Shown here: positions 8,760 through 62,162 of the stretch, in pieces
How positions within the stretch are numbered: position 1 is the first letter of the stretch
Layout of the letters: each line of letters begins with the position of its first letter
Assembly (NCBI GenBank): GCA_964612595.1
Contig: CAZTFB010000002.1
Coordinates: 188,933-252,932 of the forward strand
From: an uncultured Gammaproteobacteria bacterium
Lineage (GTDB): Bacteria > Patescibacteriota > Microgenomatia > UBA1406 > HO2-37-13b
Reading direction: 5' to 3'
DNA length: 64,000 nt
Notes under the pieces: model-generated
Database searches by the model: none
Told to the model about the DNA's origin: nothing
The model's input: the letters and a program-made list of their open reading frames with translations, nothing else
Position numbers and translations under genes: made by a program

Positions 8760-10049
8760 ATGACCTGGAACGGTATCTATGTTGTCACCGACCCCACATG
8801 GGGAGATAACGGAAAAGGGAAAATCGTTGATCTTCTTTCTGACCGCGCCGAGATGTCTATACGCTACAATGGCGGTCCAAACGCTGGCCACACTGTTCGC
8901 AACGAACATGGCGAGTTTAAATTTCACCTCATGCCTTCTGCAATATTTAATCCGAATGCCCTTTGTGTTCTCGCCGATGCCGTAGTAATCGACCCGAAAA
9001 CGTTAGCTGAAGAGATTCTTGCCATTCGCACAGCAGGGGTCGGTATATCAGAGAAAAATCTTATGATAAGTCGGTCTGCGCATATGATTATGCCATGGCA
9101 CAGAGATAGAGATAACTTAAGAGAAACAGTGCGCGGCACGGGAAAGATTGGTACAACAGGTCGAGGTATAGGGCCAACGTATGCTGATCGTACAGAGCGT
9201 GTTGGATTACAGATGAAAGATTTGCTAGCTGGTGATTTTGAAAAGCGCTTGGAAAAAGAAATGGCATGGCAAGAAAAATTAGTAGCGCTGATGCGGGGAG
9301 ATGAATTTCGTTATGATCGTAAAGAAGTGATGGAAGAGTTGATGGCAGCTCGCGAAGTGCTAGCGCCATTAATAAATGATGTGCTGCCAGCGATTGGCGA
9401 ATATTTTTCGAAAGGAAAAAGAATTCTTGGAGAAGCAGGTCAAGGGGCACTTCTTGATCTTGATCGAGGAACGTATCCATATGTGACGTCGAGCCATCCA
9501 GGTGTTGTGGGGTTTTCGCTCACGACCGGCATTCCACCAAAGGCAGTAGATATGGTTATAGGGGTTACAAAAGCGTATACAACGCGTGTGGGCGAAGGTC
9601 CATTGCCGACAGAGTTGCTTGATGAAGATGGTGAACGAATACGAACAGTTGGTCATGAATTTGGGACAACAACAGGTCGTCCGCGTCGCTGTGGATGGTT
9701 AGATATTCCTGCATTGCGCTATGGATCGCAAGTTGCTGGAGCTGATGCATTAGCGCTTACAAAAATAGATATTTATGATGATTTTGACGAGATAAAAATA
9801 TGTGTAGGTTATGAGATTGATGGAAAGAAATATGAAAGTATTCCAAGTGTCGACATCGACTTCTTAAAGAATGCAAAGGCTGTGTATGAAACAGTGCAAG
9901 GTTGGAAATCGCCGACTTCGGACATTCGCGCACTACAAGATATGCCAAAAGAAGCACGTGAGTATATCAAGAGGGTTGAAAAGCTTGTGGGAAAACCAAT
10001 CTCCATTGTCTCCGTAGGTCCTGCGAGAGAAGAAACGATGTATTGTTGA
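8760..10049 (+). CDS. purA: Adenylosuccinate synthetase
   Basis: GDNGKGKIVD (P-loop), GGPNAGHT, TTGRGIGPTYADR and GTTTGRPRRCGW. Confidence 0.95.
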   Translation: MTWNGIYVVTDPTWGDNGKGKIVDLLSDRAEMSIRYNGGPNAGHTVRNEHGEFKFHLMPSAIFNPNALCVLADAVVIDPKTLAEEILAIRTAGVGISEKNLMISRSAHMIMPWHRDRDNLRETVRGTGKIGTTGRGIGPTYADRTERVGLQMKDLLAGDFEKRLEKEMAWQEKLVALMRGDEFRYDRKEVMEELMAAREVLAPLINDVLPAIGEYFSKGKRILGEAGQGALLDLDRGTYPYVTSSHPGVVGFSLTTGIPPKAVDMVIGVTKAYTTRVGEGPLPTELLDEDGERIRTVGHEFGTTTGRPRRCGWLDIPALRYGSQVAGADALALTKIDIYDDFDEIKICVGYEIDGKKYESIPSVDIDFLKNAKAVYETVQGWKSPTSDIRALQDMPKEAREYIKRVEKLVGKPISIVSVGPAREETMYC

Positions 10050-10055
10050 GATGTG

Positions 10056-10070
10056 AGAAACGGCAATTGA
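10056..10070. repeat. Left arm of 15-bp perfect inverted repeat
   Basis: AGAAACGGCAATTGA is the exact reverse complement of 10947-10961. Confidence 0.9.
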
Positions 10071-10242
10071 CCTTTCTGTTCCTAACATCCACTTCGGCAG
10101 CCAGCCGCTGGTCGATGTGATTCCGACCAGCGGCTGAGCTGCCTTGAAGCAGTACGGGGGGTCAGCCATTAAGCTGAACTACCCACCATACTCAGGGCAT
10201 ATGCCCTTCTTGTTGTTGAGGCTTTTTATTTAGTTGTGTTGG

Positions 10243-10710
10243 TTAGGCCCGGCTGGACTCCCCGAAGCGCGCCGTCCCCACGACGACGTACCCCGTAAGG
10301 AGCGCTTGGGACAGACGGTGGCCGGAGCCGCCGCTGGTGATCTCCATGAGCCGGAACTCGCGCATCGGCGCCATCGTCCCGAAGTGGCTGAACCGACCGG
10401 CAGGCCGTGGCGCGAACTGATGACCGTCCCTCTTGGTCGCCACATGACCGCCGGTGGTGCTGACGTTGATCCCGTTCGTGCAGATCTGACCGTGACGCCC
10501 CGTGGCGTGGAGATGGCCAGAACCCTCATCGAACCCGTAGGCGATCTGCATATGCCCGTCGTCACCGCCGGACTGCTGCATGATCGCCACATGGCCGGAG
10601 TTGTCGTTCGCGCCCGCGACCTGGTGGTCCCTGGAAGCGACGACACCGAAGACCATGATCGCCACGAACGCGATCACCAGAATCCATCGAGGGATTCGGA
10701 TCTCGTACAA
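10243..10710 (-). CDS. TM-anchored His/Gly-rich protein with high-GC codon usage (very weak Cu/Zn-SOD-like pattern)
   Basis: This is the only frame in the island with strong G/C at third codon positions. The TTG start is preceded by AAAGAGGTG. N-terminal TM helix IPRWILVIAFVAIMVFGVVAS. GHLHATGRHGQIC...TTGGH...LTGYVVVG loosely recalls the SodC motifs GFH.H..G.C / GGH / l.G.a.ViH, but metal ligands are missing. Confidence 0.55.
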   Translation of the reverse strand: MYEIRIPRWILVIAFVAIMVFGVVASRDHQVAGANDNSGHVAIMQQSGGDDGHMQIAYGFDEGSGHLHATGRHGQICTNGINVSTTGGHVATKRDGHQFAPRPAGRFSHFGTMAPMREFRLMEITSGGSGHRLSQALLTGYVVVGTARFGESSRA

Positions 10711-10946
10711 GGGTTACACCTCTTTCGTTCGATCGTGAGTCGAGTGGATTCCTCCCCGCCAGCTGCGGGGAGGGACATGCGGTCGGGTGGACACTGTCTA
10801 AGGCGGATCTCGAATCAAGCTTGCCTCCTTTCAAGGCTCATGTAGGGGGTTGACGCCAAGGTAGCGATTGGACGTTAGGGCAATAAAGACAAGCTTTGCT
10901 TACCTCTACAACCCTAACGTCCAGTAAAAATGTTGGTTTCTAATAA

Positions 10947-11089: not shown

Positions 11090-11497
11090 ATGATCATTTA
11101 CCTTGCATGGATTCAGTCTATTGTTGCAACACTCGGAAGTCTCTATTTTAGCGAAGTCATGAAATTTCCACCTTGTGTTCTTTGTTGGTATCAAAGAATT
11201 TTTATGTATCCCCTCGTTTTCATTCTAGCCGTCGGCATGGTCCGTAAAGATAAAAAGATTCACACATATGTTTTGCCTTTAAGCCTCACAGGCCTATCTA
11301 TCGCGATATATCACAATTTACTTTATTATCAAATTCTTCCAGAAAGCGTTGCGCCTTGTGTTGCAGGAGTTTCATGCACAACAAAGTTTATACAATGGTT
11401 TGGCTTTGTAACAATCCCTCTACTTTCACTCATTGCATTTTCTGTAATTACTATCTGTATGTTGCTACATCTTCATCGATCAAAAAAACATTCATGA
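11090..11497 (+). CDS. DsbB/BdbC-family disulfide bond formation protein
   Basis: SLYFSEVMKFPPCVLCWYQRIFMYP carries the CxxC in periplasmic loop 1, there are four TM helices, and a second Cys pair is APCVAGVSC. The start was trimmed from GTG 11003. Confidence 0.75.
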   Translation: MIIYLAWIQSIVATLGSLYFSEVMKFPPCVLCWYQRIFMYPLVFILAVGMVRKDKKIHTYVLPLSLTGLSIAIYHNLLYYQILPESVAPCVAGVSCTTKFIQWFGFVTIPLLSLIAFSVITICMLLHLHRSKKHS

Positions 11498-15224: not shown

Positions 15225-15422
15225 TTATTTCTTTTTCTTTGCTGTTGTTTTTTTCTTAGCTACGACCTTCTTCTTGGCGATGGTCTTCTTTACTGCTTTC
15301 TTTACCGTTTTCTTGACTGCTGCTTTTTTTGGCGCGGCCTTCTTAACGACGGTCTTCTTTACAGTCTTTTTCTTAGCTACAACCTTCTTCTTGGCGACTG
15401 TTTTCTTCTTTGCTGCTGGCAT
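15225..15422 (-). CDS. Lys/Ala-rich histone H1-like nucleoid protein
   Basis: 65 aa made of KKxV/AKK repeats (MPAAKKKTVAKKKVVAKKKTVKK...). Strong SD AAGGAGG upstream. The Phe-rich plus-strand ORF is its antisense shadow. Confidence 0.7.
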   Translation of the reverse strand: MPAAKKKTVAKKKVVAKKKTVKKTVVKKAAPKKAAVKKTVKKAVKKTIAKKKVVAKKKTTAKKKK

Positions 15423-15501: not shown

Positions 15502-16707
15502 TTAGATTTTGATCAGTAGTCCCGCGAGGACGGTGCCAACACCTACAAGGGCGAAGATAAATGCAATGGTCATAGAGTTTCGCGAAAGTCCTGTCTGAGG
15601 GAGTGTTGGTTGTGAGGTAACAAGTGCTTTGGTGGGAAGCGGTGTAGATGTCGCATTAACTATGATTATGTCTGTTGGTGCCGGTGCACTCACACTTATT
15701 GGTGTTGGTGTAGCAGTTGGCGGATTATAGGTACATGCGTTTGATTGACGTGCTGAGCTTGCACCACACTCTTCATTTACTGCCTCAACATAACATGAAT
15801 AGCTGTGTCCTGCAATAGCTGTAAACTGAGCTATGGTGCCAACAATCTTTTTGTTTGGATTGTACCCTTGGATAGGTAATCCTGTGGTGTCATCACGTAT
15901 AGTGACAAGATAATAATCGCTTCCTGTCGACGCATTCCATGTGCATTGTGCACTTGAGGTGGTACATGCAAGTGCGATGTTTGAAACTGCGCTTGGAATT
16001 GGACAGGCTGTTGGTGTAGGTAGTGGCGTTGATGTTGCGGTTGGTTTAGATGTTGGCGTTGCCGTCGCTGAAGGAGCAGGTGTATTTGTTGGTTGCCCAG
16101 GTCGAATTGTTGGTGTTAATGTAGGCGTCAAAGTAAGTGTAGGTATTGCCGTTGGCGTTGGAGATGCGCTAGGAGTTGGTGTTCCTGAAGGGAAACATGC
16201 CTCGCCTTCTGGATTTTCACATAGTTTTCTTCCATCAGGATAATATATACATTGCAGTCCTGGTGCACAGCGAGGTACGATCTCGTCTTCTTCGCAAGGC
16301 TCGCATTGACCGGGTAGTATTGGTGTCGGAGACGGTGTGCCAGATGGAGGAATTTGACATATAATGGGTTGCTCGCTGCGTTTCTTACACGACAAATCGT
16401 TTGTGCTCGCAACTTCGCAATAAACTGGAACAGGAAGTGTACGAGGATCAAGATTGTCAAAAGATACAGATGTCCCACTTGTGACAGTTTTCTCTACAAC
16501 AGTATTTCCAGAACTATCAACAAGTCGGACGGTATAACTTCCTTCTGTATCCCAGTTGCACGTAATCTGTTTTAACTGTACCGGAACTTCTTCTGCCTCG
16601 TTTTTTGTTGTTTGGCGTTCACGGACAAAAATAATACCAATTACAAGCATAATAATCAGAAACACTAGTCCGGCAAAAAGGCTTAATTTTTTATTTTGTT
16701 CGTTCAT
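15502..16707 (-). CDS. Cys-rich PT-linker surface protein with LPQTG sorting signal
   Basis: N-terminal TM/signal anchor, two Cys-framed beta-type domains, and PT-rich linkers. The C-terminus is LPQTG (15589-15603) plus the hydrophobic helix MTIAFIFALVGVGTVLAGLLIKI. Confidence 0.75.
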   Translation of the reverse strand: MNEQNKKLSLFAGLVFLIIMLVIGIIFVRERQTTKNEAEEVPVQLKQITCNWDTEGSYTVRLVDSSGNTVVEKTVTSGTSVSFDNLDPRTLPVPVYCEVASTNDLSCKKRSEQPIICQIPPSGTPSPTPILPGQCEPCEEDEIVPRCAPGLQCIYYPDGRKLCENPEGEACFPSGTPTPSASPTPTAIPTLTLTPTLTPTIRPGQPTNTPAPSATATPTSKPTATSTPLPTPTACPIPSAVSNIALACTTSSAQCTWNASTGSDYYLVTIRDDTTGLPIQGYNPNKKIVGTIAQFTAIAGHSYSCYVEAVNEECGASSARQSNACTYNPPTATPTPISVSAPAPTDIIIVNATSTPLPTKALVTSQPTLPQTGLSRNSMTIAFIFALVGVGTVLAGLLIKI

Positions 16708-16708
16708 A

Positions 16709-18100
16709 TTACTGAGTTGGTTGATCAATACAAACACCTGTCACAGGCGGTAAAACGCACGCTGGTGGATTGCCTCCACCACCACCGCCCCCACCATCTC
16801 CACCACCACCTGTGCAAGCAACACGAACCCGCTTTGTACAGGAATATGTTAGAGCTCCGATGGTACATTTCATTGTTATGTCGTAAGATCCCCCGTTTTC
16901 GTAGGTATTCCTATGTTCTTCATCACCAACACCTATAACGTCGGTCGTACCTTCAAAATCTTCATCGTAATCGATATTGCCGGGCCCGCTGGAGTGGGTT
17001 TCAAACTTTGCTGATACGTTAGGTTTGAAACACTGAGGGACGGGATCAAAGTAACATTTTGGCCTGTTTGGATCATTGAGATCGCCTGGATAGTTACCGG
17101 TTGGGTCACCTAGACATCCATCTAGGTTTGCAGGATCTTCCGGTGGAGCTGGAACATTGGGTTTTTCAATAATTTCCGGCGCCTTACATGTTGTCGCGCA
17201 ACAAATTACTTCCTTTTCTTTATCAGGACAAAAAAGAGGTTCATCATCAGGATCCGTAGGGTCATCCTTAAACTTTATGGTTGCCTCATAACATCGACAT
17301 CCGTTTCCATTTGCTTCATGCAGTCTAAATAGTGCACCTGTTTCACTTGATGCTTCTTCACATTTAATTGATGTTCCATATCGTCCCTCTTGGTCGCCAG
17401 GGGTAGGAGCTATGGTTGGTCCAGTGCAGTTGGCATTTCCATATGCACTAAATTCAACTTTTTCTACATCATCACATCCAGCAGCATCTTTTTCACAGGC
17501 ATCGGGAGTCCACTTAATTTTTAGCCGCCCAATTTTTAGATCGGTCTCATTTATATTCGGTGGTGTAAGTGTTGGGAGTGGTCGTCCCGGATCTGTGTAA
17601 TCAAGTGAGATATCAACTTTCGAGCAATCTTTGCATTGACCCCCAATTCCGGTATCTCCAGGTGTAGGTGATGGTGTATTGGTCGGAGGACCTGGTGGAT
17701 CGTCATCTGGTCCACATGATATAACGTCTTCACCTTCATCACTAGCTTCTATTGAGCCACATGAATTTGTTACTTTTGTTGTAACGCTCACATGGCATTT
17801 GTAAGTTCCAGAATGTGCAATGACCACTTCTTCGGAAATCGTCGTTGATGGCTCTGAGGGGTTCATTGAACCGGCGGCAGTAACAACACCTCCTGCATTA
17901 TTGGTGACGGTTACCACGTATGTAAATGGTGTAGAGCTCTCTACGGTAAACTTACATACAACGGTTTTTTCTTCACCAACTGGACAGCTGTGTGCTGCTT
18001 GATTGCGAATATCTATACGATCTTGTAGGAGCGTAATTCCTGCAAAAATACCTCCCACAAGACCAATCAATAGTAAGACTGTCAAAAAAATCTTTTTCAT
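16709..18100 (-). CDS. Cys-rich secreted/anchored protein (about 30 Cys, poly-Gly near C-terminus)
   Basis: N-terminal anchor KKIFLTVLLLIGLVGGIFAGITLL, one copy of the Cys-framed domain (17714-17986), and many CxxC/CC pairs. Start chosen at ATG 18100 (AGGAA SD-like upstream). Confidence 0.65.
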   Translation of the reverse strand: MKKIFLTVLLLIGLVGGIFAGITLLQDRIDIRNQAAHSCPVGEEKTVVCKFTVESSTPFTYVVTVTNNAGGVVTAAGSMNPSEPSTTISEEVVIAHSGTYKCHVSVTTKVTNSCGSIEASDEGEDVISCGPDDDPPGPPTNTPSPTPGDTGIGGQCKDCSKVDISLDYTDPGRPLPTLTPPNINETDLKIGRLKIKWTPDACEKDAAGCDDVEKVEFSAYGNANCTGPTIAPTPGDQEGRYGTSIKCEEASSETGALFRLHEANGNGCRCYEATIKFKDDPTDPDDEPLFCPDKEKEVICCATTCKAPEIIEKPNVPAPPEDPANLDGCLGDPTGNYPGDLNDPNRPKCYFDPVPQCFKPNVSAKFETHSSGPGNIDYDEDFEGTTDVIGVGDEEHRNTYENGGSYDITMKCTIGALTYSCTKRVRVACTGGGGDGGGGGGGGNPPACVLPPVTGVCIDQPTQ

Positions 18101-18140
18101 ATCGTATTCCTGTAAGATATTTCTATCGATATTCATATTA

Positions 18141-18671
18141 TTATGGTGTTGGTGTCGGTCCTCCGCATCCATCTGGACATAAAATTTCTACATTTGTTAC
18201 TTTGATAGTAGGAGTCCCGGGTAAAGGACAATCATTAGTTGGAGGGGTCGGTGTGACTACGGGACAACAAACAATTCCTGGTTTTACATACTTCCCATCA
18301 CCGTCGAGGGTTGAATTGTTTGGCTTTACCCATGAGCCAACAGGGCACTCAAGTTCTGGTTTTTCAAGCGTACCGTCTGGACAACTTGGTGGCGGAATGG
18401 GCGTGTTAATAACAGTGTTCTTGCAACATACCTTGACAGTTGTGTTGTCGCCACCTATACCCGAGCTTTCTATTATGCTAATAATCTGCTTACCTGTTCC
18501 TGAGCAACTTACTTGATCAGTAACAAAGCCTCCATCGTTTTGACATTGAAGAAGGGCGTCTGTCTGGGCCTTTGTGCCGGCCTGCTGGGGCTCTCTGACG
18601 GTTAAAATTGAGATAAAAAGAAGTATGACAAGTACGACTATTCCCGAAATAATAACTGGTTTATTTTTCAT
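18141..18671 (-). CDS. Cys-rich membrane-anchored small surface protein
   Basis: N-terminal anchor PVIISGIVVLVILLFISILTV, the motifs VCCKN and IVCCPV, and PT-rich stretches. Confidence 0.6.
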   Translation of the reverse strand: MKNKPVIISGIVVLVILLFISILTVREPQQAGTKAQTDALLQCQNDGGFVTDQVSCSGTGKQIISIIESSGIGGDNTTVKVCCKNTVINTPIPPPSCPDGTLEKPELECPVGSWVKPNNSTLDGDGKYVKPGIVCCPVVTPTPPTNDCPLPGTPTIKVTNVEILCPDGCGGPTPTP

Positions 18672-18741
18672 AATAAAACTGAAGAGACAGCGGTCTCTGT
18701 TACATCTTAATATGTTGTGCTGTCAAGTGCAAGTTGAGTTA

Positions 18742-19506
18742 TTAGAGAAGCAGACCAAATGTAATTACAACAAACCCTGCAAGAATAATTACCAGCATGG
18801 AAACGGATGGAAGTCCGCCTGATGTTGGAAGCGTAGGATTGTTTGCTATGGACTTTGGCTTAGTAGTAGGTTGATTTTGTTGTGTTGGTTGTGGTGTGTT
18901 TGTTACATTAACTATCACAATATCGGTTGGGGTAGGTGTTTTTGAAGGAGTGACGTTTGGAGGTAGTGTTGGACTTGGTGTTGGGCTTAATGTCGGCGAA
19001 ATAGTACCCGTCGGCGTTGTAGAAGGCGTAATGCTCAAAGCAATGGTTATAGAAGGAGTAGGGCTTTCGATGAGAGTTGGTTGTGGTGACGAAGTGCAGG
19101 CGATCGATTTTTCGTCTGAAACTATGCCACATTCATTTGTTGCAGCCACTATACATGTATAGGTCTTGCCAGCATCTGGTGTATGTGTAACGATAATTTT
19201 GTCTGTCCCTGAGCTAGCTGGTATATCACCTTCTTTGACCAAAGTACCCTGATTATCTCTGATTGTGTAATGATAGGTAACACCAGGTTCTCGATTCCAT
19301 CGGCATATAAAGCCATTCACGGGACAACTCGGTCCAGTAAGGGAGGTGCCTTCACCTTCATCAGCTCTCTTTGCTGGATTCTGAACTTGATTTACCAAAA
19401 AGTAACCGATGACCATTGCAATCAATACAAAACCCAACAATACCAAAATTAGTCCTGTTTTTTTATTTAAACCTGTACTGGATTCTATTGTGTGCGCTGC
19501 TTTCAT
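18742..19506 (-). CDS. Cys-rich PT-linker surface protein with LPTSG sorting signal
   Basis: Anchor GLILVLLGFVLIAMVIGYFLV and a Cys-framed domain (19096-19326). LPTSG (18817-18831) is followed by the hydrophobic tail SVSMLVIILAGFVVITFGLLL. ATGA overlap with the upstream gene. Confidence 0.75.
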   Translation of the reverse strand: MKAAHTIESSTGLNKKTGLILVLLGFVLIAMVIGYFLVNQVQNPAKRADEGEGTSLTGPSCPVNGFICRWNREPGVTYHYTIRDNQGTLVKEGDIPASSGTDKIIVTHTPDAGKTYTCIVAATNECGIVSDEKSIACTSSPQPTLIESPTPSITIALSITPSTTPTGTISPTLSPTPSPTLPPNVTPSKTPTPTDIVIVNVTNTPQPTQQNQPTTKPKSIANNPTLPTSGGLPSVSMLVIILAGFVVITFGLLL

Positions 19507-20255
19507 TGTGTTGATGCCTCTCCATCGCATTGGAGACACTCGACTTCTATATTGAGTGTTGGCTTTGTACATGCTGGAACCGTTGGCAATGGTTTATCTG
19601 TAGTAGATGGTTGTGGCGTAGTTTTAATTTTAGGTTTACAACAATACTGATTGGTTGCAGGACATTGTCCAATTGGTGTTGTTGAACTTGGAGGAGTTTC
19701 GCATTCGTTAAGTGGGAGACATTGATTTGGTGTTGCACAAATAGGTTTTGGCTCAATCGAAGGTGCTGTAGTCGGTTGTGAGGAGCATGAGACCCACTGG
19801 TTTCCTTGGTATCGGACAAAGCGAAGACCATCGTCGAAGCGACATTCCCAACAAGTTACATCGCTACATGGGTTGCCTTTAGGCTTACACTCACCTTCAG
19901 CAGGTGCCGAACATCCACTGCCGGTCATCCCTGTCCATGGACAACAGCCTGTCGTGCAGACCATGCCAATTTGATCAAGTCGAGCCTTGTATTTCTGCCA
20001 ATCTAAACAAGCTAGTTCTTGTATTCCTGCATCATCTGAAAATATACTTACCTCATCGGATGAGGTGGTGGTAGGTGTGGCGGTCGGCGTTTGAAGAGGT
20101 TTTTGTGTTGGAACGGACATGACATTAAGGTAATAAAAAACACCCAATATGATTGCCAAGACAACAAGGACACCAATGACTATTATCGGCAGTTTGCTCT
20201 TTGCCGCAGTTATGTCTTGGGGTAGAGGTGTGTAATGCAAAGAATCATCATCCAT
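19503..20255 (-). CDS. Cys-rich membrane-anchored surface protein
   Basis: Anchor LPIIVIGVLVVLAIILGVFYYL, about 26 Cys including the TGCCPW, YCCKPK and ECLQC motifs, and PT linkers. Confidence 0.6.
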   Translation of the reverse strand: MDDDSLHYTPLPQDITAAKSKLPIIVIGVLVVLAIILGVFYYLNVMSVPTQKPLQTPTATPTTTSSDEVSIFSDDAGIQELACLDWQKYKARLDQIGMVCTTGCCPWTGMTGSGCSAPAEGECKPKGNPCSDVTCWECRFDDGLRFVRYQGNQWVSCSSQPTTAPSIEPKPICATPNQCLPLNECETPPSSTTPIGQCPATNQYCCKPKIKTTPQPSTTDKPLPTVPACTKPTLNIEVECLQCDGEASTQ

Positions 20256-20273
20256 AGATTTAGATTATTTATA

Positions 20274-21161
20274 CTATGTTCTCCTTTGTTTTGCTATAAG
20301 CGTCATGAGATTAGCAGAGAGTATTGTTGTTGTGAAGGGTTCGGCAACAAATCGAACCAATACTGTTGCATAAAGAAAAAGCGCAAGCCCTGCAAACATA
20401 CCAACAACAACCTGATGTGTTGGTGTAATGGGGGATGTCTTCGGTTCTGGGATCATAACGAGTGCGAGAAAAGCAACAGAATTAAAAAATGATTGAGATA
20501 CCACTCGAATTGTTTCGTCTGGTTGGTGAGTTATAAATATGTTGTATACAAAGAAACAAAAAATATACGTTAGAAAAAACGTTACTGCATAATTAAATTT
20601 TCTAAATGCTTGAGCAAAATACAGGCATCCAAGCAATAGGCCCACTGCAACAAGAATGTTGACAACGGGAATATTCGATAAGAGCTGTTGTTGCATATCT
20701 GCTCCCCACCACGATATAAGTAATGAATCAGGAACGAGCTTTAGGGCAAGGAGGAATTTTGAGAGATACAGAGCAAAAAAAAGCCCAAAAGCTGCTGGAT
20801 TAAAAATTGGAAGGTTTGATTTCTTGAAAAAGTATTTTCCTACAAATATGCCTATGAAGACAAACATAAACAGTAGGGGTGCATTAGATGGATGGACAAG
20901 AAGGTATACGAGTATAGTGCTGATCAGAATATTAAACGGATTTACGGTTTGAAATTTTAAGATATAACGAGAAATATAATAAAAGGTAAAGCCTAACCCA
21001 CCGCAGAGGAAAACATTAAACAACATGTTCGTTTTTTCTCCATTGTTTTTAGTACCAAGATAAATATCGAGTGTTGAAATGATGGAAAAGACTGATAGAA
21101 AGAGTAAAAATCGAAAAAGCGGATTTCTGAAATTTATGAATTTTTTTATCTCCGACAACAT
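20274..21161 (-). CDS. NQR2/RnfD/RnfE-family polytopic membrane protein
   Basis: MIPEPKTSPITPTHQVVVGMFAGL matches the family signature (F.atDP.TSP.t..G...yG...G), and PIFNPAAFGLFF matches the NPA(l/a) segment. About 8 TM helices. Only 18 nt separate it from the downstream Cys-rich genes. Confidence 0.55.
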   Translation of the reverse strand: MLSEIKKFINFRNPLFRFLLFLSVFSIISTLDIYLGTKNNGEKTNMLFNVFLCGGLGFTFYYISRYILKFQTVNPFNILISTILVYLLVHPSNAPLLFMFVFIGIFVGKYFFKKSNLPIFNPAAFGLFFALYLSKFLLALKLVPDSLLISWWGADMQQQLLSNIPVVNILVAVGLLLGCLYFAQAFRKFNYAVTFFLTYIFCFFVYNIFITHQPDETIRVVSQSFFNSVAFLALVMIPEPKTSPITPTHQVVVGMFAGLALFLYATVLVRFVAEPFTTTILSANLMTLIAKQRRT

Positions 21162-21210: not shown

Positions 21211-21684
21211 ATGAATGGTAAAAATCTCGCAATGGGTCTCGTTGTTGTTGCGATTATTGGTGTTGCTGTTTTTGCACTTGGGAGCAAGCCAGCTGAAAAA
21301 GCCCAAACACCAGAGCCTACACAGGCCCAACAAGAAATTGTTACAGACACAGCGAAGCCATCTGGAGCAATGATGGAAAAAGGCAGCTACAAAGACGGGG
21401 TTTACAAGGCAGTTGGTAACTATACATCACCTGCACAAGAAGAAACTATTGAAATTAGTTTAACACTGAAAGACGGGCTCATAACAGACGCCGCGTTTAC
21501 TGGAAAAGCGGTCAATGAAGTATCTAAGAAAATGCAAGGAAAATTTTCAGAGGGTTTTGAAGAAGAAGTTGTTGGTAAATCTATTGATGAAATTAATCTA
21601 ACCGTCGTAAATGGTTCATCGCTTACGCCAAAAGGATTTATGGATGCTCTTGGGAAAGTGAAGCTTGAAGCACAACAATCATAA
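21211..21684 (+). CDS. Extracytosolic FMN-binding-domain protein (FMN_bind-like)
   Basis: Signal anchor LAMGLVVVAIIGVAVFALG. YKDGVYKAVGNYTSP...ISLTLKDGLITDAAF...VVNGSSLTPKGFMDAL parallels the FMN_bind pattern (YkDGtY.g...g......v.vtv.dgkI..i.......vSGAT.Ts.a...Av). NGSS (21610-21621) sits at the SGAT flavinylation site. Confidence 0.6.
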   Translation: MNGKNLAMGLVVVAIIGVAVFALGSKPAEKAQTPEPTQAQQEIVTDTAKPSGAMMEKGSYKDGVYKAVGNYTSPAQEETIEISLTLKDGLITDAAFTGKAVNEVSKKMQGKFSEGFEEEVVGKSIDEINLTVVNGSSLTPKGFMDALGKVKLEAQQS

Positions 21685-21685
21685 G

Positions 21686-22558
21686 ATGAGTTTTCAAGAA
21701 TGTACGTTTACCTCAATGGGAACGTCGTGGCGTATTACAATATGGGACGATATTCCTGAGACAACATTCCTAGCACTCGAGCAAACGATTCGTGCGTATT
21801 GTTCAATTTTTGATCATACGTATTCTCGATTTATTGAGAATTCTTTTATTGTGCAACTCTCCGAGAAGATAGGAGTCCAAGAGGTTCCTCCAGAATTTAT
21901 TGACATACTTCGTATGTATGAAAAGCTTTTTGTGCTGTCTTATGGAGCATTTACCCCACTTGTTGGTGATGCTCTGAGCGATTTGGGGTATGATGCGACA
22001 TATTCGCTACAGCCAAAAAAAACAATACGTCGCGTACCTGATCTATTAAAAACTGTACAGATTATTGATGGGCGCCATATCGAGCTTAAAGAGAAGTCGA
22101 CCATCGATATTGGGGCTATTGGAAAAGGATTTACTGTAGATGCTGTATCAGCCATTATTGAGCAGAAAGGACTTTTGTCCTACCTCGTAGATGGAAGTGG
22201 CGATATTCGCTACAAAGGCTCTAAGAACATCAAAGTTGGGCTTGAGCATCCTAAAGATGCTTCTAAAATAATTGGCTCCATAGATTTCTCTACGGGTGCA
22301 ATGTGTAGCTCTGCAACGAACAGAAGGTCTTGGCAAGGCATGCATCATATTATTAACCCACGTACCTTAACGTCAACAAATGAGATACTTGCTTGTTGGG
22401 TTATGGCTGAGTCAGCTGCACTTGCAGATGGATTATCTACGGCACTTTTTCTTTCACCCCCCGAACAGTTTGAAAAAGATTTCACATTCGAATACCTTAT
22501 TTTAAATAGTGAGATGAAAGTAAAAAGATCAGCAGGATTTCATGCTGAGTTATATTAA
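21686..22558 (+). CDS. apbE: FAD:protein FMN transferase (ApbE family)
   Basis: MGTSWRITIWD, DIGAIGKGFTVDAV, LVDGSGDIRYKG, SSATNRRSW..HHIINPRT and ALADGLSTALF. Confidence 0.85.
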   Translation: MSFQECTFTSMGTSWRITIWDDIPETTFLALEQTIRAYCSIFDHTYSRFIENSFIVQLSEKIGVQEVPPEFIDILRMYEKLFVLSYGAFTPLVGDALSDLGYDATYSLQPKKTIRRVPDLLKTVQIIDGRHIELKEKSTIDIGAIGKGFTVDAVSAIIEQKGLLSYLVDGSGDIRYKGSKNIKVGLEHPKDASKIIGSIDFSTGAMCSSATNRRSWQGMHHIINPRTLTSTNEILACWVMAESAALADGLSTALFLSPPEQFEKDFTFEYLILNSEMKVKRSAGFHAELY

Positions 22559-22576: not shown

Positions 22577-23119
22577 ATGAGACATTGGCTATTAGTAAGT
22601 GTATTTTTATTAGTCTGTAGTGCGATTGTCTACTATGTATTCTATGGAAGGCTTCATAATAAAATTGAACCACGACTTAACATCAGATATCAAGAATCTC
22701 CCACAAAGCAGCCCTTACAAGTCGTAGGCGATAGTGTTCCAGTGCCGACTCTAGGAACAAATACTGGTGGTAGTTGTAATGATCTACCCGAGAGACAGGA
22801 CGTACATGCCATGTATGTAAAAAGTCTTGCAAAGGACTGCGGCGCACTTAACGACAATGAAATGGTAATGGATGAGGCGCAAACAAAAGATATTTTTCAT
22901 TGTATGCAAAATGATCTTGATCGTAAAGGAGTATGTGGCAATAGTAAGGCCTTTTTAACTCTTCAGGGTTTTGAAGGAATAATAGAAGTATTTGTTGAGA
23001 GTAAAAATTGTAAAGTTAGTGTAAAACAATGGTCAACCACTTCACCGCAATGTGGATATAGCGAAGAAGTATGTGATACTTTTTCAGATAGGTTTCCATT
23101 TCAAATATGCAGTACGTAA
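22577..23119 (+). CDS. Secreted Cys-containing hypothetical protein
   Basis: N-terminal hydrophobic helix WLLVSVFLLVCSAIVYYVF and 9 Cys in the mature part. Confidence 0.5.
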   Translation: MRHWLLVSVFLLVCSAIVYYVFYGRLHNKIEPRLNIRYQESPTKQPLQVVGDSVPVPTLGTNTGGSCNDLPERQDVHAMYVKSLAKDCGALNDNEMVMDEAQTKDIFHCMQNDLDRKGVCGNSKAFLTLQGFEGIIEVFVESKNCKVSVKQWSTTSPQCGYSEEVCDTFSDRFPFQICST

Positions 23120-23946
23120 AAATTATTCTTGCTCAAATAGGTGCATATTTTGTGACGATCGTTTTGATCGAGAGGGTATTTCTTGGGCCTGTTCCAACAG
23201 TACGCGCAGAATTTATATACGAAGTGCAATCATTACCCCAAACTGCACGCACTTATATTGCAGAGACGCCAGCAAAAATTTCATCATTTATTGCACGACT
23301 TAAAGAACGCAAAGAGCTCGCATCAAAAACGCCACCTCCATGGGTGTTTGAACCGGTGCCTGGCGAAGTTATTCCTACACAATCAGGTCGCTACGCGGGG
23401 CCAACTAGGTCACCAAAAGAATCGCCTCACGATCCACAACAACCAACCAGTCAACCACAAGATCCACGACCAACAGACCAACAGAGAAAGCCAGATCAAC
23501 CACGTGAGGTTTTGCCTACGCGAGCGCCACAACCAACAAGGCCGCCGGCACAGCCCACATCAGTTCCAGCGAGTCCTTCAACACTAGAACAACAAATGTT
23601 GGCTTTGATTAATCAGCGACGCAAAGCCGCTGGGCTCCAAGAAATGTCTCTGGATGGCCATTTAACAACTGCAGCTCGCGACCATAGTTCGTATATGTCT
23701 GGAGGTCGGGGCCGTTGTGGCCATGTTGGTGCAGGAGGGTCATCTCCATTTGATAGAGCAAAAACAGCTGGCTACAACGGCCAGGTTATTGGTGAGACTG
23801 TTGCATGTAGTTATACGTCAGCTCAAGCTGCTGTTGATGGATGGTGGTCAAGCCCGCCGCATAAGGCAATTCTTATGAGCCAGAACGGACGACAAATTGG
23901 TCTTGGATGGTCAAATAATTATCAAACAGCGCTTGTTGCACGCTAA
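23107..23946 (+). CDS. CAP/SCP/PR-1 (YkwD-like) domain protein with Pro/Gln-rich linker
   Basis: N-terminal TM helix. C-terminal LALINQRRKAAGLQEMSLDGHLTTAARDHSSYM...DGWWSSPPHKAILMS...IGLGW is typical of the CAP domain. Confidence 0.75.
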   Translation: MQYVKIILAQIGAYFVTIVLIERVFLGPVPTVRAEFIYEVQSLPQTARTYIAETPAKISSFIARLKERKELASKTPPPWVFEPVPGEVIPTQSGRYAGPTRSPKESPHDPQQPTSQPQDPRPTDQQRKPDQPREVLPTRAPQPTRPPAQPTSVPASPSTLEQQMLALINQRRKAAGLQEMSLDGHLTTAARDHSSYMSGGRGRCGHVGAGGSSPFDRAKTAGYNGQVIGETVACSYTSAQAAVDGWWSSPPHKAILMSQNGRQIGLGWSNNYQTALVAR

Positions 23947-37816: not shown

Positions 37817-38228
37817 TAATCTTTCACCTCGCTTTCTGAAAAACGTGTATACACCTGTAGATCAATGCGTTATTCATTTTTGGGGAATATGATTGTCTTT
37901 AAAACAGAAGTACATATTAACACGTATGAATATATTATATCTTGGATGTTGGCAGTGTCAAGGGAAGAGATGAAATGATAAAGGGCTTTGAGGTTGTCAG
38001 GACAAGTTATATAGGATATAACTGATACGTGAGATTTAGAAACCAGTCTTTTTGCAAGGCTGTATTTTTTTATCCCACAGCTCTTTTTATTTTAGGTCAG
38101 TGCAAACATGGTTATTAAGTGACCGTATATGAGGCACCTATTTTGAGATTTATCGCTTAATAGGTGTTTCTTAGGCGGTCACTTTCTATCCGATGTTCAA
38201 TCACAGAGAGGTACGACAGACAATGAAT

Positions 38229-38357
38229 TCACAAGCCGACCCTCGGGTCTTGGTACCCGGACAGAACCCCAAGTTGGATCGCGCGTTCGACTTGGGCGAG
38301 TTCCTTTGGTGACAGGCGCTTCGGCGCCCGATGTTCCTCGAGGTCCTTCTTGCTCAT
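38229..38357 (-). CDS. Possible 42-aa ORF at the left edge of island 2
   Basis: MSKKDLEEHRAPKRLSPKELAQVERAIQLGVLSGYQDPRVGL with moderately G/C-biased third positions. No SD, so it may be a gene remnant. Confidence 0.25.
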   Translation of the reverse strand: MSKKDLEEHRAPKRLSPKELAQVERAIQLGVLSGYQDPRVGL

Positions 38358-38408
38358 GACAACTTTGCTTCGGCGGTTCGTCGTGGTTGGGCAGGAGGAC
38401 TCGAGCCG

Positions 38409-39092
38409 GTGGACAAGTCCTGTGCACCGTGGATCGCTCGCCTCAAGGGCTTCGAGGCCGTGGTGCGGGCACCCGACGACAGGATGACCGTCGGCCCAAC
38501 CGACGACATCCAAGGCTCGGGCTACAAGGGCTGGGTTCGCTATCACGAGATGGCGTTTGCTGGCTCGGCTCAGTCCGAGAGCGAAGATCTCCTCGCGGCA
38601 CTATTGATGAGCCTGCCGCAGACTCACCTGCAGCCTACTCTGCATCATGTCGGTTTCGCCTACGCCACTCTCGACGAGATGGTGGCTGCGGTCGAAGCCA
38701 ATGAGGCCGAGACGGGCCATCGAGCCACGTGGCCAGGCGCGTCGGATCTCATCCGTGCGTACACCTGGCGATCAAAGCCAGACCACATCAACGATGGCTA
38801 CTGGGTCGAGCGCATCTTCCGGCCGTCGGCGGATGGTACTTCGGAGGCGAGTGCGCATGTGGATCTGGTATCGAGCGATCCGCATGGCGTTCTGAACTTC
38901 GTAGCCGAGCATCTGGGCGACGAGCCGCAGATCTTCAATCCCGGCTGGGAGAACGGTCCGCTCGGCTATGTCTTCGTGATGGGACGCGACATGCCCGTCG
39001 GCGTTATGACGCGCGGGCACTGGTGGAACATTCCGATGGTTCCGCGCCCCGGCAACCTCCAGGAGGTCGTAGAAGCGATCCTCGACAGTTAG
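38409..39092 (+). CDS. High-GC-codon-usage protein, possibly VOC/glyoxalase-like
   Basis: G/C-rich third positions throughout. GTG start 9 nt after GGAGGA (38394-38399). LHHVGFAYATLDEMVAAV resembles the first beta-alpha unit of VOC proteins (weak). Confidence 0.55.
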   Translation: MDKSCAPWIARLKGFEAVVRAPDDRMTVGPTDDIQGSGYKGWVRYHEMAFAGSAQSESEDLLAALLMSLPQTHLQPTLHHVGFAYATLDEMVAAVEANEAETGHRATWPGASDLIRAYTWRSKPDHINDGYWVERIFRPSADGTSEASAHVDLVSSDPHGVLNFVAEHLGDEPQIFNPGWENGPLGYVFVMGRDMPVGVMTRGHWWNIPMVPRPGNLQEVVEAILDS

Positions 39093-39147
39093 TCGGCATC
39101 TGGACGACACTTCTTATAGACCTCCTCTGTGACCGCACTGACCTGGG

Positions 39148-39177
39148 GGAGGCGCCGCGCTACAACGCGGCGCCTCC
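39148..39177 (+). terminator. GC-rich perfect 12-bp hairpin terminator of the island-2 gene
   Basis: GGAGGCGCCGCG (39148-39159), loop ctacaa, CGCGGCGCCTCC (39166-39177), then TTCT. Confidence 0.6.
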
Positions 39178-39202
39178 TTCTAGTCATACTTCTATATTAA
39201 AC

Positions 39203-57923: not shown

Positions 57924-58166
57924 ATGAAGGCTACACAATATCAGTATCAGAATGTACTGTTTATCATATTAGCCTTAGGCGCGGTCTTTTTACTGGCTCC
58001 ATTTCTCCTCGCATTCGACTCTCTTTTCTATATGATAGTTCGACCGTCTTGTCTCCAGTGTGGCGCATTATCAAGCTTTTTAAAATCTCAATCACTAACT
58101 GCTGCAATGCTTTCATCATTGAACATTTATTCATTTAAACAAATCGCTCATGACAAACGGACCTGA
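57924..58166 (+). CDS. 80-aa membrane protein preceding the giant gene
   Basis: TM helix VLFIILALGAVFLLAPFLLAF. Its end overlaps the ATG of the 1328-aa gene by 17 nt. Confidence 0.35.
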   Translation: MKATQYQYQNVLFIILALGAVFLLAPFLLAFDSLFYMIVRPSCLQCGALSSFLKSQSLTAAMLSSLNIYSFKQIAHDKRT

Positions 58167-61100
58167 ACAAGGGAGAAATCAAGAATCGCCACTACAGCGA
58201 AAGATTCGAGAAACACGTGAAAATATTAAGAAAGTTCTGGGTGGGATTGACAGTGACACAGCAAGAAGCGAAGAAGATAAAAAAAAGAGTAAGGAAGAAA
58301 TCCTTAAGACTTCGCGTGAAGAACTAAATAGACATCTTGAAAAGCACGAGAACGTACCTGATGATCGCCGTGATCCAGATAAGGCAGCGGAGGACGTGAT
58401 GACACATGTGGCTGAGCTAGCCGAACTAGTGGAACAAAAAGTTGTACCGCACCTTCCTGAAATTGCAGGCGCAGTCGTTACGGCACTTGCTACAAAAAAA
58501 TTCTCTCCGAGAAAGGCACTACTGATTGGAAAAATTGTGAGCGAGATTATTGGCTCAGAACAATTTAAAGCGACCACTGAAGCAGGATCTGAGGCAGTAA
58601 AAAAGAAGCTGCGCGATCTTGCTGACAGCCTGCGAGGTGGAGGACAAGATGATATTGCTGAAGTTGTTGCAGAACAATTAGGTCCCCCAGAGCCGCCAAA
58701 ACCACCAGAAAATCCTCCTAATCAACCTGGTATGCCTGAGTATGGCGAAGATCCTGGTGACGATCATGAGCCAATAGAGAAGTATCTAAATAGTCACTAT
58801 CGAAGAATTAAATCCACTCGAGATCCTACCACGGGCAAAATTATAGAAGGTAATGCTGATTGGCTTGATATTGAAGAGCGCAAGGCAAATGGGGGTGGGT
58901 ATATGGGTATGACTGCTGAACATCAGAAAAGTTTACTTGGTGTCGCGATTGTTAATCAGATTGATTTGACGCGTTCACAACGGGTTGTTATACGTGCATT
59001 TGATGGCGGCGATGAATTCAAGGCTTATTTTATGGCGACGAAAGAGATGCTTACCGAGAAAATGAGAGCTTCAGGAAAGCTTCAGCCGACAGAGACTGCA
59101 GATATAAATCAAGTTTATAAAGAAATGAGCGGTCATGTTAAGGAGCTAGTCCGTGAGCTGCTTTCATCACTAAGTGGAACTGTTGATCAAGCGAATGCAA
59201 AGGAATCTCGTTATATCGCCCTTCTCGTTGATCGTATATCTCGTAATATTCGTACAGAAATAACGGGTGATGTTGATATGGATGTACCTGGATCAATTAA
59301 GCTCGAAGGAACTGATGCATTCTTGCCCGCAGAAGGTCAAACAAATTCGAATCGTGATCTTGCCGAAGATGATTGGGGCAACCTTGTTGGTGGCATGGGT
59401 GAGTATCTCGTGCCTCGTAATGTTCAAGTCTCTATGAGCGAGGCACTTGTTGACGATCTTGCGGCTACACTTACAAAACTTCAAAAAATAACTGTTGGAT
59501 TTCACAATGCCAGAACAAACGCATATTCCCTTGGAAGTCATGAAGAATTAGGGCAGCAGTTAAAGAAAGATGGTGTTAAACCCGCGGATATTGTATGGGC
59601 CTTCAAAAAAGAAGAAGATATAAATCTAGCGTATAATTTACTTATTCAGAGTCTTCAGCAACTTAAATCACAAACTGCACGCACAATAACCGAACGTTAC
59701 GGTTCGATGTCAAAAGTGAGAGGTTTTACTGAGGCTGAATATCGAGCATGGATACAATTACTTTCGCTTGATGATGGCTATCGAAAAGCTGAGATTGCTT
59801 ACAAGTTAGCAAAAGAAGCTGGTGATAAAGCAAAAGAAAAGCTGTACAAAAAGGGTATAGACAGTATTATGCGTCAAAAGGAACGTGCTATAAAAATGGC
59901 AAGTGGTATTGCATGGGGTCATAGTAGAGAGGCTTGGGGAGTGCTTCTGGATGCAAAATTACTTACGAAACGTGAGGGAAAGGGGACAGAAGATGACCCG
60001 TACACGATTGGGCAACACTATGGTGGTTCCCAGTCAACCGGTATTGAAAAAATGCTTGCCGAACTACATCCAGCAACGAGTGATGATCGTTGGGGAAGAG
60101 ATAAGGTTGCTCCAATATGGATGCTCTACCAACCACGTGACCTTGAGGCGGCAGAGACGGGTTGGAAGCGTGATGAGGTGTTTACACATACCCGACTTTA
60201 CGATCTTTATGATCAACATCAAAAAGCGTTCTATTCAGGCCGCTCTGATGATCTTGCTGACTTTGATGATCAGTATGTCACACTGCATGAGTTTGCAAAT
60301 GTGACTTCACTCCATATGCTGCGTAGAGAAGGATGGCGACTTCGACAATACGAACATTATCTTAATCAATACGCTAAAGATGCTGAAGCAGAGGGTCTCA
60401 AAGGGATGGACAAACATGAATATATGATGAAGCGACTTATGATAAGGGGCGGGCCAAGACTGGTCAAAATGTATATCGATAAAAAGGTAGGCGACATGTT
60501 GGAGGTGGACAATGGTGCTGACAAAAGCATGGCAAGACGACTTAAGAAAGGTAAGAAGGCTGAAGATGGTGAAAAAAAGATTGGCAAGGAATTTTCATGG
60601 CAAAAGAAGGCTCTTGAAGAAGCGCGCAAAGCAAAACAGTATGGACTTGAAAGATATTATGCAAAATATATTTTTGATGACCTATCTAAACGCTTTGCGA
60701 CAAGTTTAATTGCGTTTGAACAACCTCGCTATATGCCAATGAATGAGAAAACTCTATATACAACACTCAACTCATTCATTGAAACTCAACCTTTCTTAAA
60801 GGATCTCCCTCCTGGAGTAATACAAACAGAGGTATACCCTATTTATATTGATGCTATTCATACAATTGAACGACATAAATGGGAAGGAATTACGAAAGAT
60901 AAAAGTGGCTCTAAGAAGGATCAGATCGCTCGACAAATCGCAGATCCAAAAGACATATCATCAGCAGATTTTAATGATCCAAACATTAAAGCGAAGTTAA
61001 AAACACATTTTAAGCTTAATAATGAACGTATGGGTGAGATCACAGATAAAATGTATTCTTTAACAAATGCAAAAACAGATGCTGAAATGGATCAAGCTTT

Positions 61101-62136: not shown

Positions 62137-62147
62137 GCGTCTATTTT

Positions 62148-62156
62148 TGGTATAGT
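62148..62156 (+). promoter_or_regulatory. Extended -10 (TGgTATAGT) 6 nt upstream of ATG 62163
   Basis: TATAGT at 62151-62156, gap agtggt, then ATG. Confidence 0.45.
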
Positions 62157-62162
62157 AGTGGT

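Follow-up and report, generated by a model that had tools for sequence, protein, structure and literature searches.

A cysteine-rich surface-protein cassette and a neighboring, probably separate, RnfD-like flavin module in a Woesebacteria genome

Introduction

When a gene for a redox-type membrane protein lies directly in front of five genes for cysteine-rich exported proteins, the question arises whether the six form one system or two. This question is posed by a 64,000-nucleotide stretch of contig CAZTFB010000002.1 (assembly GCA_964612595.1, positions 188,933 to 252,932 of the forward strand), called the window here, in which six minus-strand genes, named A to F, follow one another between positions 15502 and 21161. 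Gene A encodes an RnfD/NqrB-like membrane protein, and genes B to F encode the cysteine-rich proteins, two of which end in LPxTG-type sorting motifs. The initial annotation had read the six genes as one operon for a disulfide-stabilized surface assembly, possibly an attachment or pilus-like structure, that may be co-transcribed with the redox protein.

The source genome is from Woesebacteria, which belong to the Microgenomates group of the Patescibacteria, or candidate phyla radiation (CPR). A scan of species-representative genomes for A returned three loci at approximately 70 % identity, one of them from a Candidatus Woesebacteria and one on a complete 938-kb chromosome; a more distant homolog is from a Candidatus Roizmanbacteria. 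CPR bacteria are thought to be attached to other cells, and to our knowledge little is known of their surface machinery beyond type IV pili and the type IV secretion system (T4SS). We conclude that the locus probably holds two neighboring modules and not one system: a flavin module, to which A belongs, and an exported, disulfide-rich surface cassette, B to F, with wall display.

Results and Discussion

Gene layout

All six open reading frames (ORFs) of the initial annotation are present, and gene calls on identical Logan contigs concur, with independent lengths of 295, 250, 254, 176, 463/487 and 401 amino acids for A to F. The intergenic gaps measure 18 nt (A–B), −4 nt (B–C), 70 nt (C–D), 4 nt (D–E) and 1 nt (E–F). 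The overlap of B and C (ATGA) and the E–F junction (TAATATG) can both be read in the sequence, and the tight spacing described earlier is real. For E, the ORF was correctly placed, and its start probably was not. In place of 18100, the start is probably 18136, because the segment QEYDxKKI, which lies 5′ of the earlier start, is conserved in orthologs. The alternatives are 18172 and 18100, and the D–E gap ranges from 4 to 40 nt with the choice of start.

Related loci separate A from B–F

In the close relatives (loci L007, L011–L013 and L023), the arrangement is that of the window: ApbE and a gene for a flavin mononucleotide (FMN)-binding-like protein of 157 residues run in one direction, and A-B-C-D-E-F, followed by a Lys-rich gene, in the other. 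The whole 20-kb neighborhood, from transketolase to BipA, is syntenic in these relatives, so their shared A–F order carries little weight. In L010, whose F is 56 % identical, VTT, MJ0043_C and UvrD-helicase genes separate A from a short B, C (with LPVTG), D, E and F. In the Roizmanbacteria locus L018 (A 36 % identical), SBF, dockerin-domain and MJ0043_C genes come after A, and then a B–C pair; the B homolog has 19 cysteines, and the C homolog has LPVSG and 7 cysteines. This locus has no D, E or F and no adjacent ApbE. The divergent ApbE/FMN-like pair stands beside A in L017 (A 42 %) and L019 (A 30 %), where the genes 3′ of A are unrelated to B–F and include, for example, a class A penicillin-binding protein.

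The opposite arrangement was also found. The distant locus L020 (E-like protein at approximately 30 % identity) encodes D-like, E-like and fibronectin type III (Fn3)-type (C/F-like) proteins. L022, with approximately 27–30 % identity over the C-terminal half of E, encodes D-like and Fn3-type proteins and four tandem E-like paralogs. No RnfD-like gene was found within 6 kb upstream of either cassette, or within 4.4 kb (L020) or 0.6 kb (L022) downstream. In both of these loci, D-like genes precede E-like genes. The B–F cassette thus recurs in relatives; a metagenome scan with a narrower E alignment returned only three close loci. Taken together, the trio without B–F, the cassettes without A, and the unrelated genes between the two argue that the stable partners of A are ApbE and the 157-residue protein and that B–F is separable from them. 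The proposed coupling of the surface proteins to a redox-type membrane protein is not upheld by these loci.

Further genes were observed at two of these loci. In L018, a small secreted protein with 8 cysteines and a type I dockerin (PF00404, E 2e-8) is encoded at 9920–10480, between A and the B–C pair. In L020 (3420–5329 and 9172–10836), the D-like and E-like genes are flanked on the 5′ side by two proteins with pseudopilin-like N-termini and on the 3′ side by an S8 peptidase of the subtilisin type and a nuclease that is secreted.

The flavin module

Gene A (20274–21161, minus strand) encodes a stand-alone RnfD/NqrB-like polytopic membrane protein of 295 residues. This family label, given in the initial annotation, passes weakly (PF03116, 29.6 bits against a cut-off of 27.7). 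The 20 homologs found and A itself measure 215–334 residues and have no second domain, and a 15-sequence alignment shows the invariant motifs PIFNPAA, SWWGAD and EPKTSP. A three-sequence profile gave nothing significant against PDB sequences; the profile of the wider family matches the RnfD structures 7zc6_D (E 0.005) and 8ahx_D (E 0.014), to which it aligns its two ends, the NPA and (D/E)PxTSP regions. The SWWGAD motif follows NPAA by approximately 24 residues. It was equated with the covalent-FMN site of RnfD, (S/T)GA(T/S), by position only, as the segment falls outside the structure alignment. By this comparison, the usual flavinylation site in A appears to be replaced by SWWGAD. No genes for RnfA, B, C or E or for NqrA, D, E or F were found in any locus examined.

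The 157-residue protein (21211–21684, plus strand) is the divergent partner of A, is membrane-anchored, and its gene always adjoins ApbE and A. Neither Pfam nor the PDB yields a match for the window protein; its L019 ortholog (48 % identity) reaches the FMN_bind family (PF04205, 22.2 bits against a cut-off of 22). FMN_bind proteins usually carry an SGAT-type site. At the place of this flavinylation motif, the 157-residue family has the invariant VVNGSSLTPKGF, with NGSS instead of SGAT. The third member is ApbE, the flavin adenine dinucleotide (FAD):protein FMN transferase (21665–22558, plus strand; PF02424, E 9e-44). The ApbE operon continues at 22577–23946 (plus strand) with a membrane-anchored protein of 180 residues and 9 cysteines, which has no family match, followed by a protein that combines a CAP/SCP domain with a Pro/Gln-rich linker. 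Both genes are kept beside ApbE in relatives.

ApbE-linked "NQR/RNF-like" clusters have been described mainly in Actinobacteria and CPR, and in these the RnfD-like domain is fused to an NqrF-like nicotinamide adenine dinucleotide (NAD)-binding domain (Meheust et al. 2021, PMC8238504). The present module resembles them in the joint presence of ApbE, an FMN_bind-type protein and an NqrB/RnfD-like membrane protein. It differs in that A has no NqrF-like NAD-binding domain (PF00175), and in having SWWGAD in A and NGSS instead of SGAT in the FMN_bind-like protein. As A has no NAD-binding domain, we take the module to be a variant of these systems. Judged by sequence, then, A, the FMN_bind-like protein and ApbE constitute a flavinylation-associated membrane module of the NQR/RNF-like kind. 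The pairing of a stand-alone SWWGAD-type RnfD-like protein with ApbE and FMN_bind appears to be new.

Architecture of the cassette proteins

The five proteins B to F each have an N-terminal transmembrane segment, Pro/Thr linkers and many cysteines, as had been noted, and are predicted to be secreted or anchored. Their cysteine content is 2.0–7.6 %, compared to a mean of 0.9 % in the 64 other ORFs of the window, and their combined Pro and Thr content is 19–26 %, compared to a mean of 9.5 %. The CC motifs YCCKPK, VCCKN, IVCCPV and VICCATTC were all found again. The initial annotation could assign none of the five to a named family. This holds at the family level, where a search of all six proteins and their neighbors gave no significant Pfam or NCBIfam match for B–F, and is superseded at the fold level by the Fn3-like and PKD-like domains described below.

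Gene B (19503–20255, minus strand) encodes 250 residues with 19 cysteines: a transmembrane anchor, a Pro/Thr linker, a body with 16 cysteines and a C-terminal tag with three. The five full-length Woesebacteria orthologs and the Roizmanbacteria homolog all have 19 cysteines. In L010, B is reduced to 108 residues, of which only anchor, linker and tag remain. Gene D (18141–18671, minus strand; 176 residues, 11 cysteines) has a transmembrane anchor, a pair of small Cys-rich modules, both with CC at the end, and the three-cysteine tag. A hevein-like reading of the D1 module, considered from its pattern, was dropped, as no model supported it. B has no match in Pfam, NCBIfam or PDB sequences, and D, the center of E and a small module in F likewise have no PDB match by sequence.

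The other three proteins carry recognizable domains. Gene C (18742–19506, minus strand; 254 residues) consists of a transmembrane or signal segment, one Fn3-like domain with 5 cysteines, a long Pro/Thr linker, the segment TDIVIVNVT, and LPTSG with a hydrophobic helix. Gene E (16709–18136, minus strand; 475 residues, 25 cysteines) begins with a transmembrane segment and an RNQAA motif, followed by the Fn3-like domain E1 and a central Cys-rich domain (FRLHxA..CRCY). Next, within the same coordinates, come a CC.xxC.PE motif, the PKD-like domain E3, a Gly-rich linker and a two-cysteine tag. Gene F (15502–16707, minus strand; 401 residues, 16 cysteines) has a transmembrane or signal segment, the domain F1, a Pro/Thr linker, a six-cysteine module, a second Pro/Thr linker and the domain F3, and within these coordinates ends in the segment TDIIIVNAT and LPQTG with helix and KI. 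E orthologs diverge faster (approximately 41 % identity) than those of A or F (approximately 70 %).

A short motif stands approximately 5–12 residues after the N-terminal helix. It reads (D/T)(I/V)RN(R/Q)AA, TKNEAEE, GTKAQ or AKRADE and is common to all of B–F (for example DIRNQAA and TKNEAEE; positions 18010–18030 for E). It recurs as RNRAA in distant E-like proteins and is found across otherwise unrelated secreted proteins (P0045–P0065). Possibly it serves as a site of processing or recognition that is specific to the lineage. At 15225–15422 (minus strand), 79 nt 3′ of F, lies a Lys/Ala-rich ORF of 65 residues (MPAAKKKTVAKKKVV...) with no Pfam match, which resembles basic proteins of the histone H1/Hc1 type. 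Lys-rich versions of 65–71 residues occupy the same position in L001, L007, L008/L009 and L012; the equivalent 71-residue ORF of L013 is listed on the opposite strand.

Fn3-like and PKD-like domains

The Cys-capped domain common to C, E and F was recognized by profile–profile comparison. C1 (residues 56–140 of C; 19087–19341, minus strand) aligns by hhalign to F3 (residues 232–330; 15718–16014, minus strand) with a probability of 94 %, to E1 (17708–17998, minus strand) with 92 %, and to F1 (residues 41–118; 16354–16587, minus strand) with 69 %. AlphaFold2 (AF2) models of six F orthologs reached a predicted local distance difference test (pLDDT) score of 67–82 for F1 and 72–89 for F3. The top Foldseek matches of the F model in the PDB are all fibronectin type III, with E 1e-5 for tandems; single FN3 domains gave a target-normalized template modeling score (TMt) of 0.64–0.74 and a root-mean-square deviation of 3.2–3.6 Å. 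On the strength of these comparisons, F1, F3, C1 and E1 are assigned a fibronectin type III-like fold. The Pfam fn3 model matches none of the four at E<=0.1, and the best match for C1 in a PDB profile search, neuroglian FnIII over its full length, is sub-threshold (E 0.37).

For E, a full HMMER search was made, since the word-indexed search for F homologs was possibly saturated by words from the Pro/Thr linkers; counts for F are accordingly minimum values. Among 1.84 billion representatives, the E profile found 26 proteins at E<=1e-3. These are a handful of E-like proteins of 430–560 residues and multi-repeat proteins that match at profile positions 377–448. The latter match at E 1e-9 to 1e-4, and Pfam finds PKD repeats in most of them, from which we derive the assignment of the C-terminal globular domain of E. 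This domain, E3 (with flanks, residues 327–430 from the start at 18100; 16811–17122, minus strand), is PKD-like by these profile matches. The Pfam PKD model itself does not match E, and a PDB profile search with E3 gave nothing significant. The AF2 model of E is all-beta and of low confidence, also at E3; the folds that it matches, at low confidence, are strings of Ig-like domains and can be taken as an indication at most.

Sorting signals

LPQTG of F (15589–15603, minus strand) and LPTSG of C (18817–18831, minus strand) stand where they had been reported. LPQTG is invariant in 7 orthologs; the motif of C follows LP[TV][ST]G and reads LPTTG, LPVTG or LPVSG in orthologs. Upstream, C and F share the conserved segment TDI(V/I)(I/V)VN(V/A)T, also described before. 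No other C-terminus in the window is LPxTG-like, and in both proteins the pentapeptide lies within approximately 35 residues of the end. Both had been called classical tripartite signals. Motif and hydrophobic helix are present in both; after the helix, F has a single Lys (...LLIKI), and C has no charge. No sortase is encoded in the window, as initially stated, and the motif TLxTC is absent from it. Sortase is reported to be nearly ubiquitous in Microgenomates, and MdbA-like/VKOR disulfide families are enriched in CPR (PMC6744442). In the literature searched, Patescibacteria and LPXTG were co-mentioned incidentally only, and no account of Patescibacteria sortase substrates was found.

A C-terminal cysteine tag

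B, D and E, which have no LPxTG signal, share a different C-terminus. The tag of B (ACTKPTLNIEVECLQCDGEASTQ; 19506–19574, minus strand) was aligned with 18 other tags of B, D and E-like proteins, among them that of D (DCPLPGTPTIKVTNVEILCPDGCGGPTPTP; 18144–18233, minus strand). B and D follow the pattern C-(P)-x-P-x(4-10)-[IV]x[IV]x-C-x(1-3)-C, and E has a two-cysteine version (ACVLPPVTGVCIDQPTQ; 16712–16762, minus strand), an ending type also seen in proteins P0045–P0048. In total, 19 examples of the three-cysteine tag were collected from at least 7 loci, in proteins of the B, D, E-like and F1-like types. Cassette variants that bear the tag are also present on distant Microgenomates contigs, where the flanks covered hold no RnfD-like gene. 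The tag is located at the extreme C-terminus, after a Pro/Thr- or Gly-rich linker, and has no match among the NCBIfam C-terminal sorting-domain models or any family model searched. The short B of L010, reduced as it is to anchor, linker and tag, argues that selection acts on the tag. In alignment, the tag falls on the first strand of F3 (CPIPSAVSNIALAC), which is missing from C1 together with its cysteine. We considered the tag as a detached first Fn3 strand. The alignment is as expected for this idea and is not significant (hhalign E 0.075), and the idea was not retained.

Cysteine numbers are regular among orthologs. B has 19 (3 in the short form), C has 5 (7 in L018), D has 11 (7 in L012 and L023), E has 25 or 27, and F has 16 or 14. 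All changes are in even steps, as expected if cysteines come and go in disulfide pairs. The count is odd in B, C, D and E of every ortholog and even in F, and the cassette proteins of L020 are all odd (13, 25, 7 and 17). These counts hint at one unpaired or intermolecular cysteine in each odd-numbered protein. As a general rule, one free cysteine for each odd count was rejected: it holds for B–E and for L020 and fails for the four E-like paralogs of L022, which are even. Parity is therefore a lead and not a rule.

Proposed display of the cassette

The order of events that we propose is as follows. Each of the B–F proteins would be exported by the Sec route through its N-terminal hydrophobic segment. 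The cysteines would then be oxidized outside the membrane. A likely source of oxidant is a DsbB/BdbC-type disulfide oxidoreductase, which was correctly recognized in the initial annotation (11090–11497, plus strand; NF002849, 151.9 bits against a cut-off of 124). Its gene lies approximately 4 kb from the cassette and is syntenic in relatives, and a role in supplying oxidant for the cassette cysteines is plausible. A sortase encoded elsewhere would cleave C and F at LPxTG and attach them to peptidoglycan, and on their Pro/Thr stalks the Fn3-like domains would project outward. B, D and E would stay membrane-anchored at the N-terminus or be tethered through the C-terminal cysteine tag. Together, the five proteins might provide a surface layer, adhesive or structural, for what is probably an episymbiotic cell of ultrasmall size, a role suggested by the Fn3 and PKD domain types and the presumed attached lifestyle.

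The closest known counterparts are the LPXTG surface proteins of Gram-positive bacteria, such as adhesins of the MSCRAMM (microbial surface components recognizing adhesive matrix molecules) type. These share with the cassette an export segment, an Ig/Fn3-like beta-sandwich and a Pro/Thr-rich stalk, and C and F likewise end in LPxTG and a hydrophobic helix. Unlike these adhesins, the cassette proteins are very Cys-rich and presumably disulfide-bonded, C and F score below the LPXTG models, C has no charged tail, three partners have a cysteine tag and no LPXTG, the genes belong to a CPR bacterium, and no nearby gene for a sortase was found. A more remote analogy is offered by the cohesin–dockerin scaffolds anchored by sortase, the logic of the cellulosome, where small C-terminal modules after Pro/Thr linkers also occur beside wall-anchored beta-sandwich proteins. 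It is an analogy only: no similarity of B–F to dockerin or cohesin was found in sequence or fold, and the tag, at approximately 20 residues, is Cys-based and not Ca-binding.

Alternative explanations

If the six genes were a single unit after all, the RnfD-like protein, ApbE and the FMN_bind protein would feed or withdraw electrons for the thiol/disulfide chemistry of B–F, for example in isomerization, reduction or maturation. Such a unit would agree with the short A–B gap, in which there is no convincing terminator, with the position of A 5′ of B–C on the same strand in the Woesebacteria clade, L010 and L018, and with the Cys-rich 180-residue protein and the CAP-domain protein in the ApbE operon; flavinylated systems tied to DsbD or thioredoxin-like functions are known (PMC8238504). 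However, the trio occurs without B–F in L017 and L019, the cassettes occur without A in L020 and L022, and UvrD helicase, VTT, MJ0043_C and SBF genes intervene between A and B in L010 and L018. The order in close relatives weighs little in a syntenic 20-kb region, and A has neither an NqrF-like NAD-binding domain nor, apparently, the flavinylation threonine (SWWGAD). We therefore hold a single redox unit to be unlikely. Even less probable is that B–F have no joint function and are locally duplicated, shuffled and fast-evolving secreted proteins, clustered by tandem paralogy only. The domains common to C, E and F, the four tandem E-like paralogs of L022, the rapid divergence of E relative to A and F and the very narrow phyletic spread (among billions of proteins, at least 7 orthologs of F and 26 relatives of E) would fit this explanation. 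Yet the order D-like, E-like, Fn3/anchor protein is kept down to approximately 30 % identity, the overlapping or near-abutting frames (ATGA, TAATATG) suggest translational coupling, and one conserved tag is found in the otherwise non-homologous B, D and E.

Two other explanations concern how the cassette is assembled. In a sortase-polymerized pilus of the SpaA/FimA type, C and F would serve as pilins, linked Thr-to-Lys before their attachment to the wall, with B, D and E as accessory or tip proteins. Two LPxTG-type proteins in one cluster and the invariant NPNKK of F3, with its two lysines, are compatible with a pilus. The folding of actinobacterial pilins also depends on extracytoplasmic disulfides made by MdbA/VKOR, and CPR genomes carry matching oxidoreductases and sortase (PMC6744442). 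The locus nevertheless has neither an [VIL]x[VIL]YPK pilin motif nor an E-box in regular-expression searches, a pilus-specific (class C) sortase was found neither in the cluster nor elsewhere in the window or the related flanks, the modeled folds are Fn3 and not CnaA/CnaB, and three of the five proteins are without any sorting signal. The pilus-like structure suggested in the initial annotation is thus very improbable. Alternatively, the tags of B, D and E could dock to wall-anchored C and F by strand pairing, an intermolecular disulfide or both, and so build a multi-protein surface organelle. The placement of the tag in its 19 proteins, its retention in L010 B after loss of the whole body, the odd cysteine counts of B–E next to an even F, the stand-alone B–C pair of L018 (19 and 7 cysteines) and the alignment to the very strand of F3 that C1 lacks could all be accommodated. 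Against it, that alignment is not significant, the even L022 paralogs deprive the parity argument of generality, and the tags may equally be an intramolecular hairpin or an unrelated sorting signal. Docking of this kind is an outside chance. The same low likelihood applies to its boldest form, in which the tag would be an unrecognized docking or sorting module of Microgenomates, linking B, D and E to the sortase-anchored C and F disulfide-wise or strand-wise in a CPR-specific, wall-anchored organelle of several subunits, which would serve attachment to hosts or substrates and whose redox state the flavin module possibly sets.

Several points weigh against two separate modules with wall display, the reading that we prefer. 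A precedes B–C on the same strand from Woesebacteria to Roizmanbacteria, which could reflect function and not inherited synteny. With an A–B gap of 18 nt, and with promoter and terminator scans at chance level, A and B–F may be co-transcribed. In all orthologs, C ends in ...FGLLL, without a positive tail, and it matches neither TIGR01167 nor PF00746; F falls below the cut-offs of both (15.3 against 15.9 and 13.6 against 20, respectively). No sortase was found in the window or in approximately 260 kb of related loci by a phmmer search with S. aureus SrtA and a relaxed scan for the active-site motif. B, D and the center of E have no recognized fold, and the model of E is poor (pLDDT 48). Finally, the adhesive function is read from the domain types alone.

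Other features of the window

The G+C content of the window is approximately 40 %, and two GC-rich islands stand out. The island at 10050–10850 (58–67 % G+C) lies between purA and dsbB/bdbC. Relatives have it at the same position, with 57–62 % G+C and 72–74 % nucleotide identity in parts. Conservation of its ORFs is poor (42 % identity, 13 % gaps), neither Pfam nor Rfam has a match for it, and folding gave z = −5.8 for the minus strand and z = −2.0 for the plus strand. The island may encode a large structured non-coding RNA or may be foreign DNA. The second island (38200–39200, 58–66 % G+C) is unrelated to it in sequence. This island contains an ORF of 253 residues (38331–39092) with no Pfam match and has itself no Rfam match; folding gave z = −5.35 for the plus strand and −3.66 for the minus strand, with a strong GC hairpin at the plus-strand end (approximately 39150–39185). 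Horizontal acquisition of a gene could account for this island, as could a structured RNA. At 62019–62978 (plus strand), an ORF of 319 residues with 15 cysteines weakly matches the T4SS pilin family PF18895 (E 0.0026, below cut-off). It adjoins an ORF of 1328 residues at 58150–62136 (plus strand) with no Pfam match, and the two may be part of a Patescibacteria-type T4SS locus.

Conclusion

Genes B–F are a Microgenomates-restricted cassette of the Fn3-like domains C1, E1, F1 and F3, the PKD-like E3, small Cys-rich modules and Pro/Thr stalks. The cassette is most likely a lineage-specific variant of Gram-positive-style surface display and not a new redox-coupled organelle. Much in the locus is of known kinds, namely LPxTG anchoring, Fn3 and PKD domains, Pro/Thr stalks and the ApbE module. 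What appears to be new in the cassette is a conserved multi-gene Microgenomates arrangement with extreme cysteine content and a common C-terminal cysteine tag. The view of the locus as a redox-coupled surface organelle is corrected accordingly, the RnfD-like gene going with the ApbE/FMN_bind module. For the surface of CPR bacteria, the locus offers candidates: two conserved LPxTG-type proteins, three partners that share a tag, and a cassette that recurs in Microgenomates. If the tag were indeed a docking or sorting signal, it would help to catalogue the surface proteomes of CPR bacteria and to design experiments on attachment.

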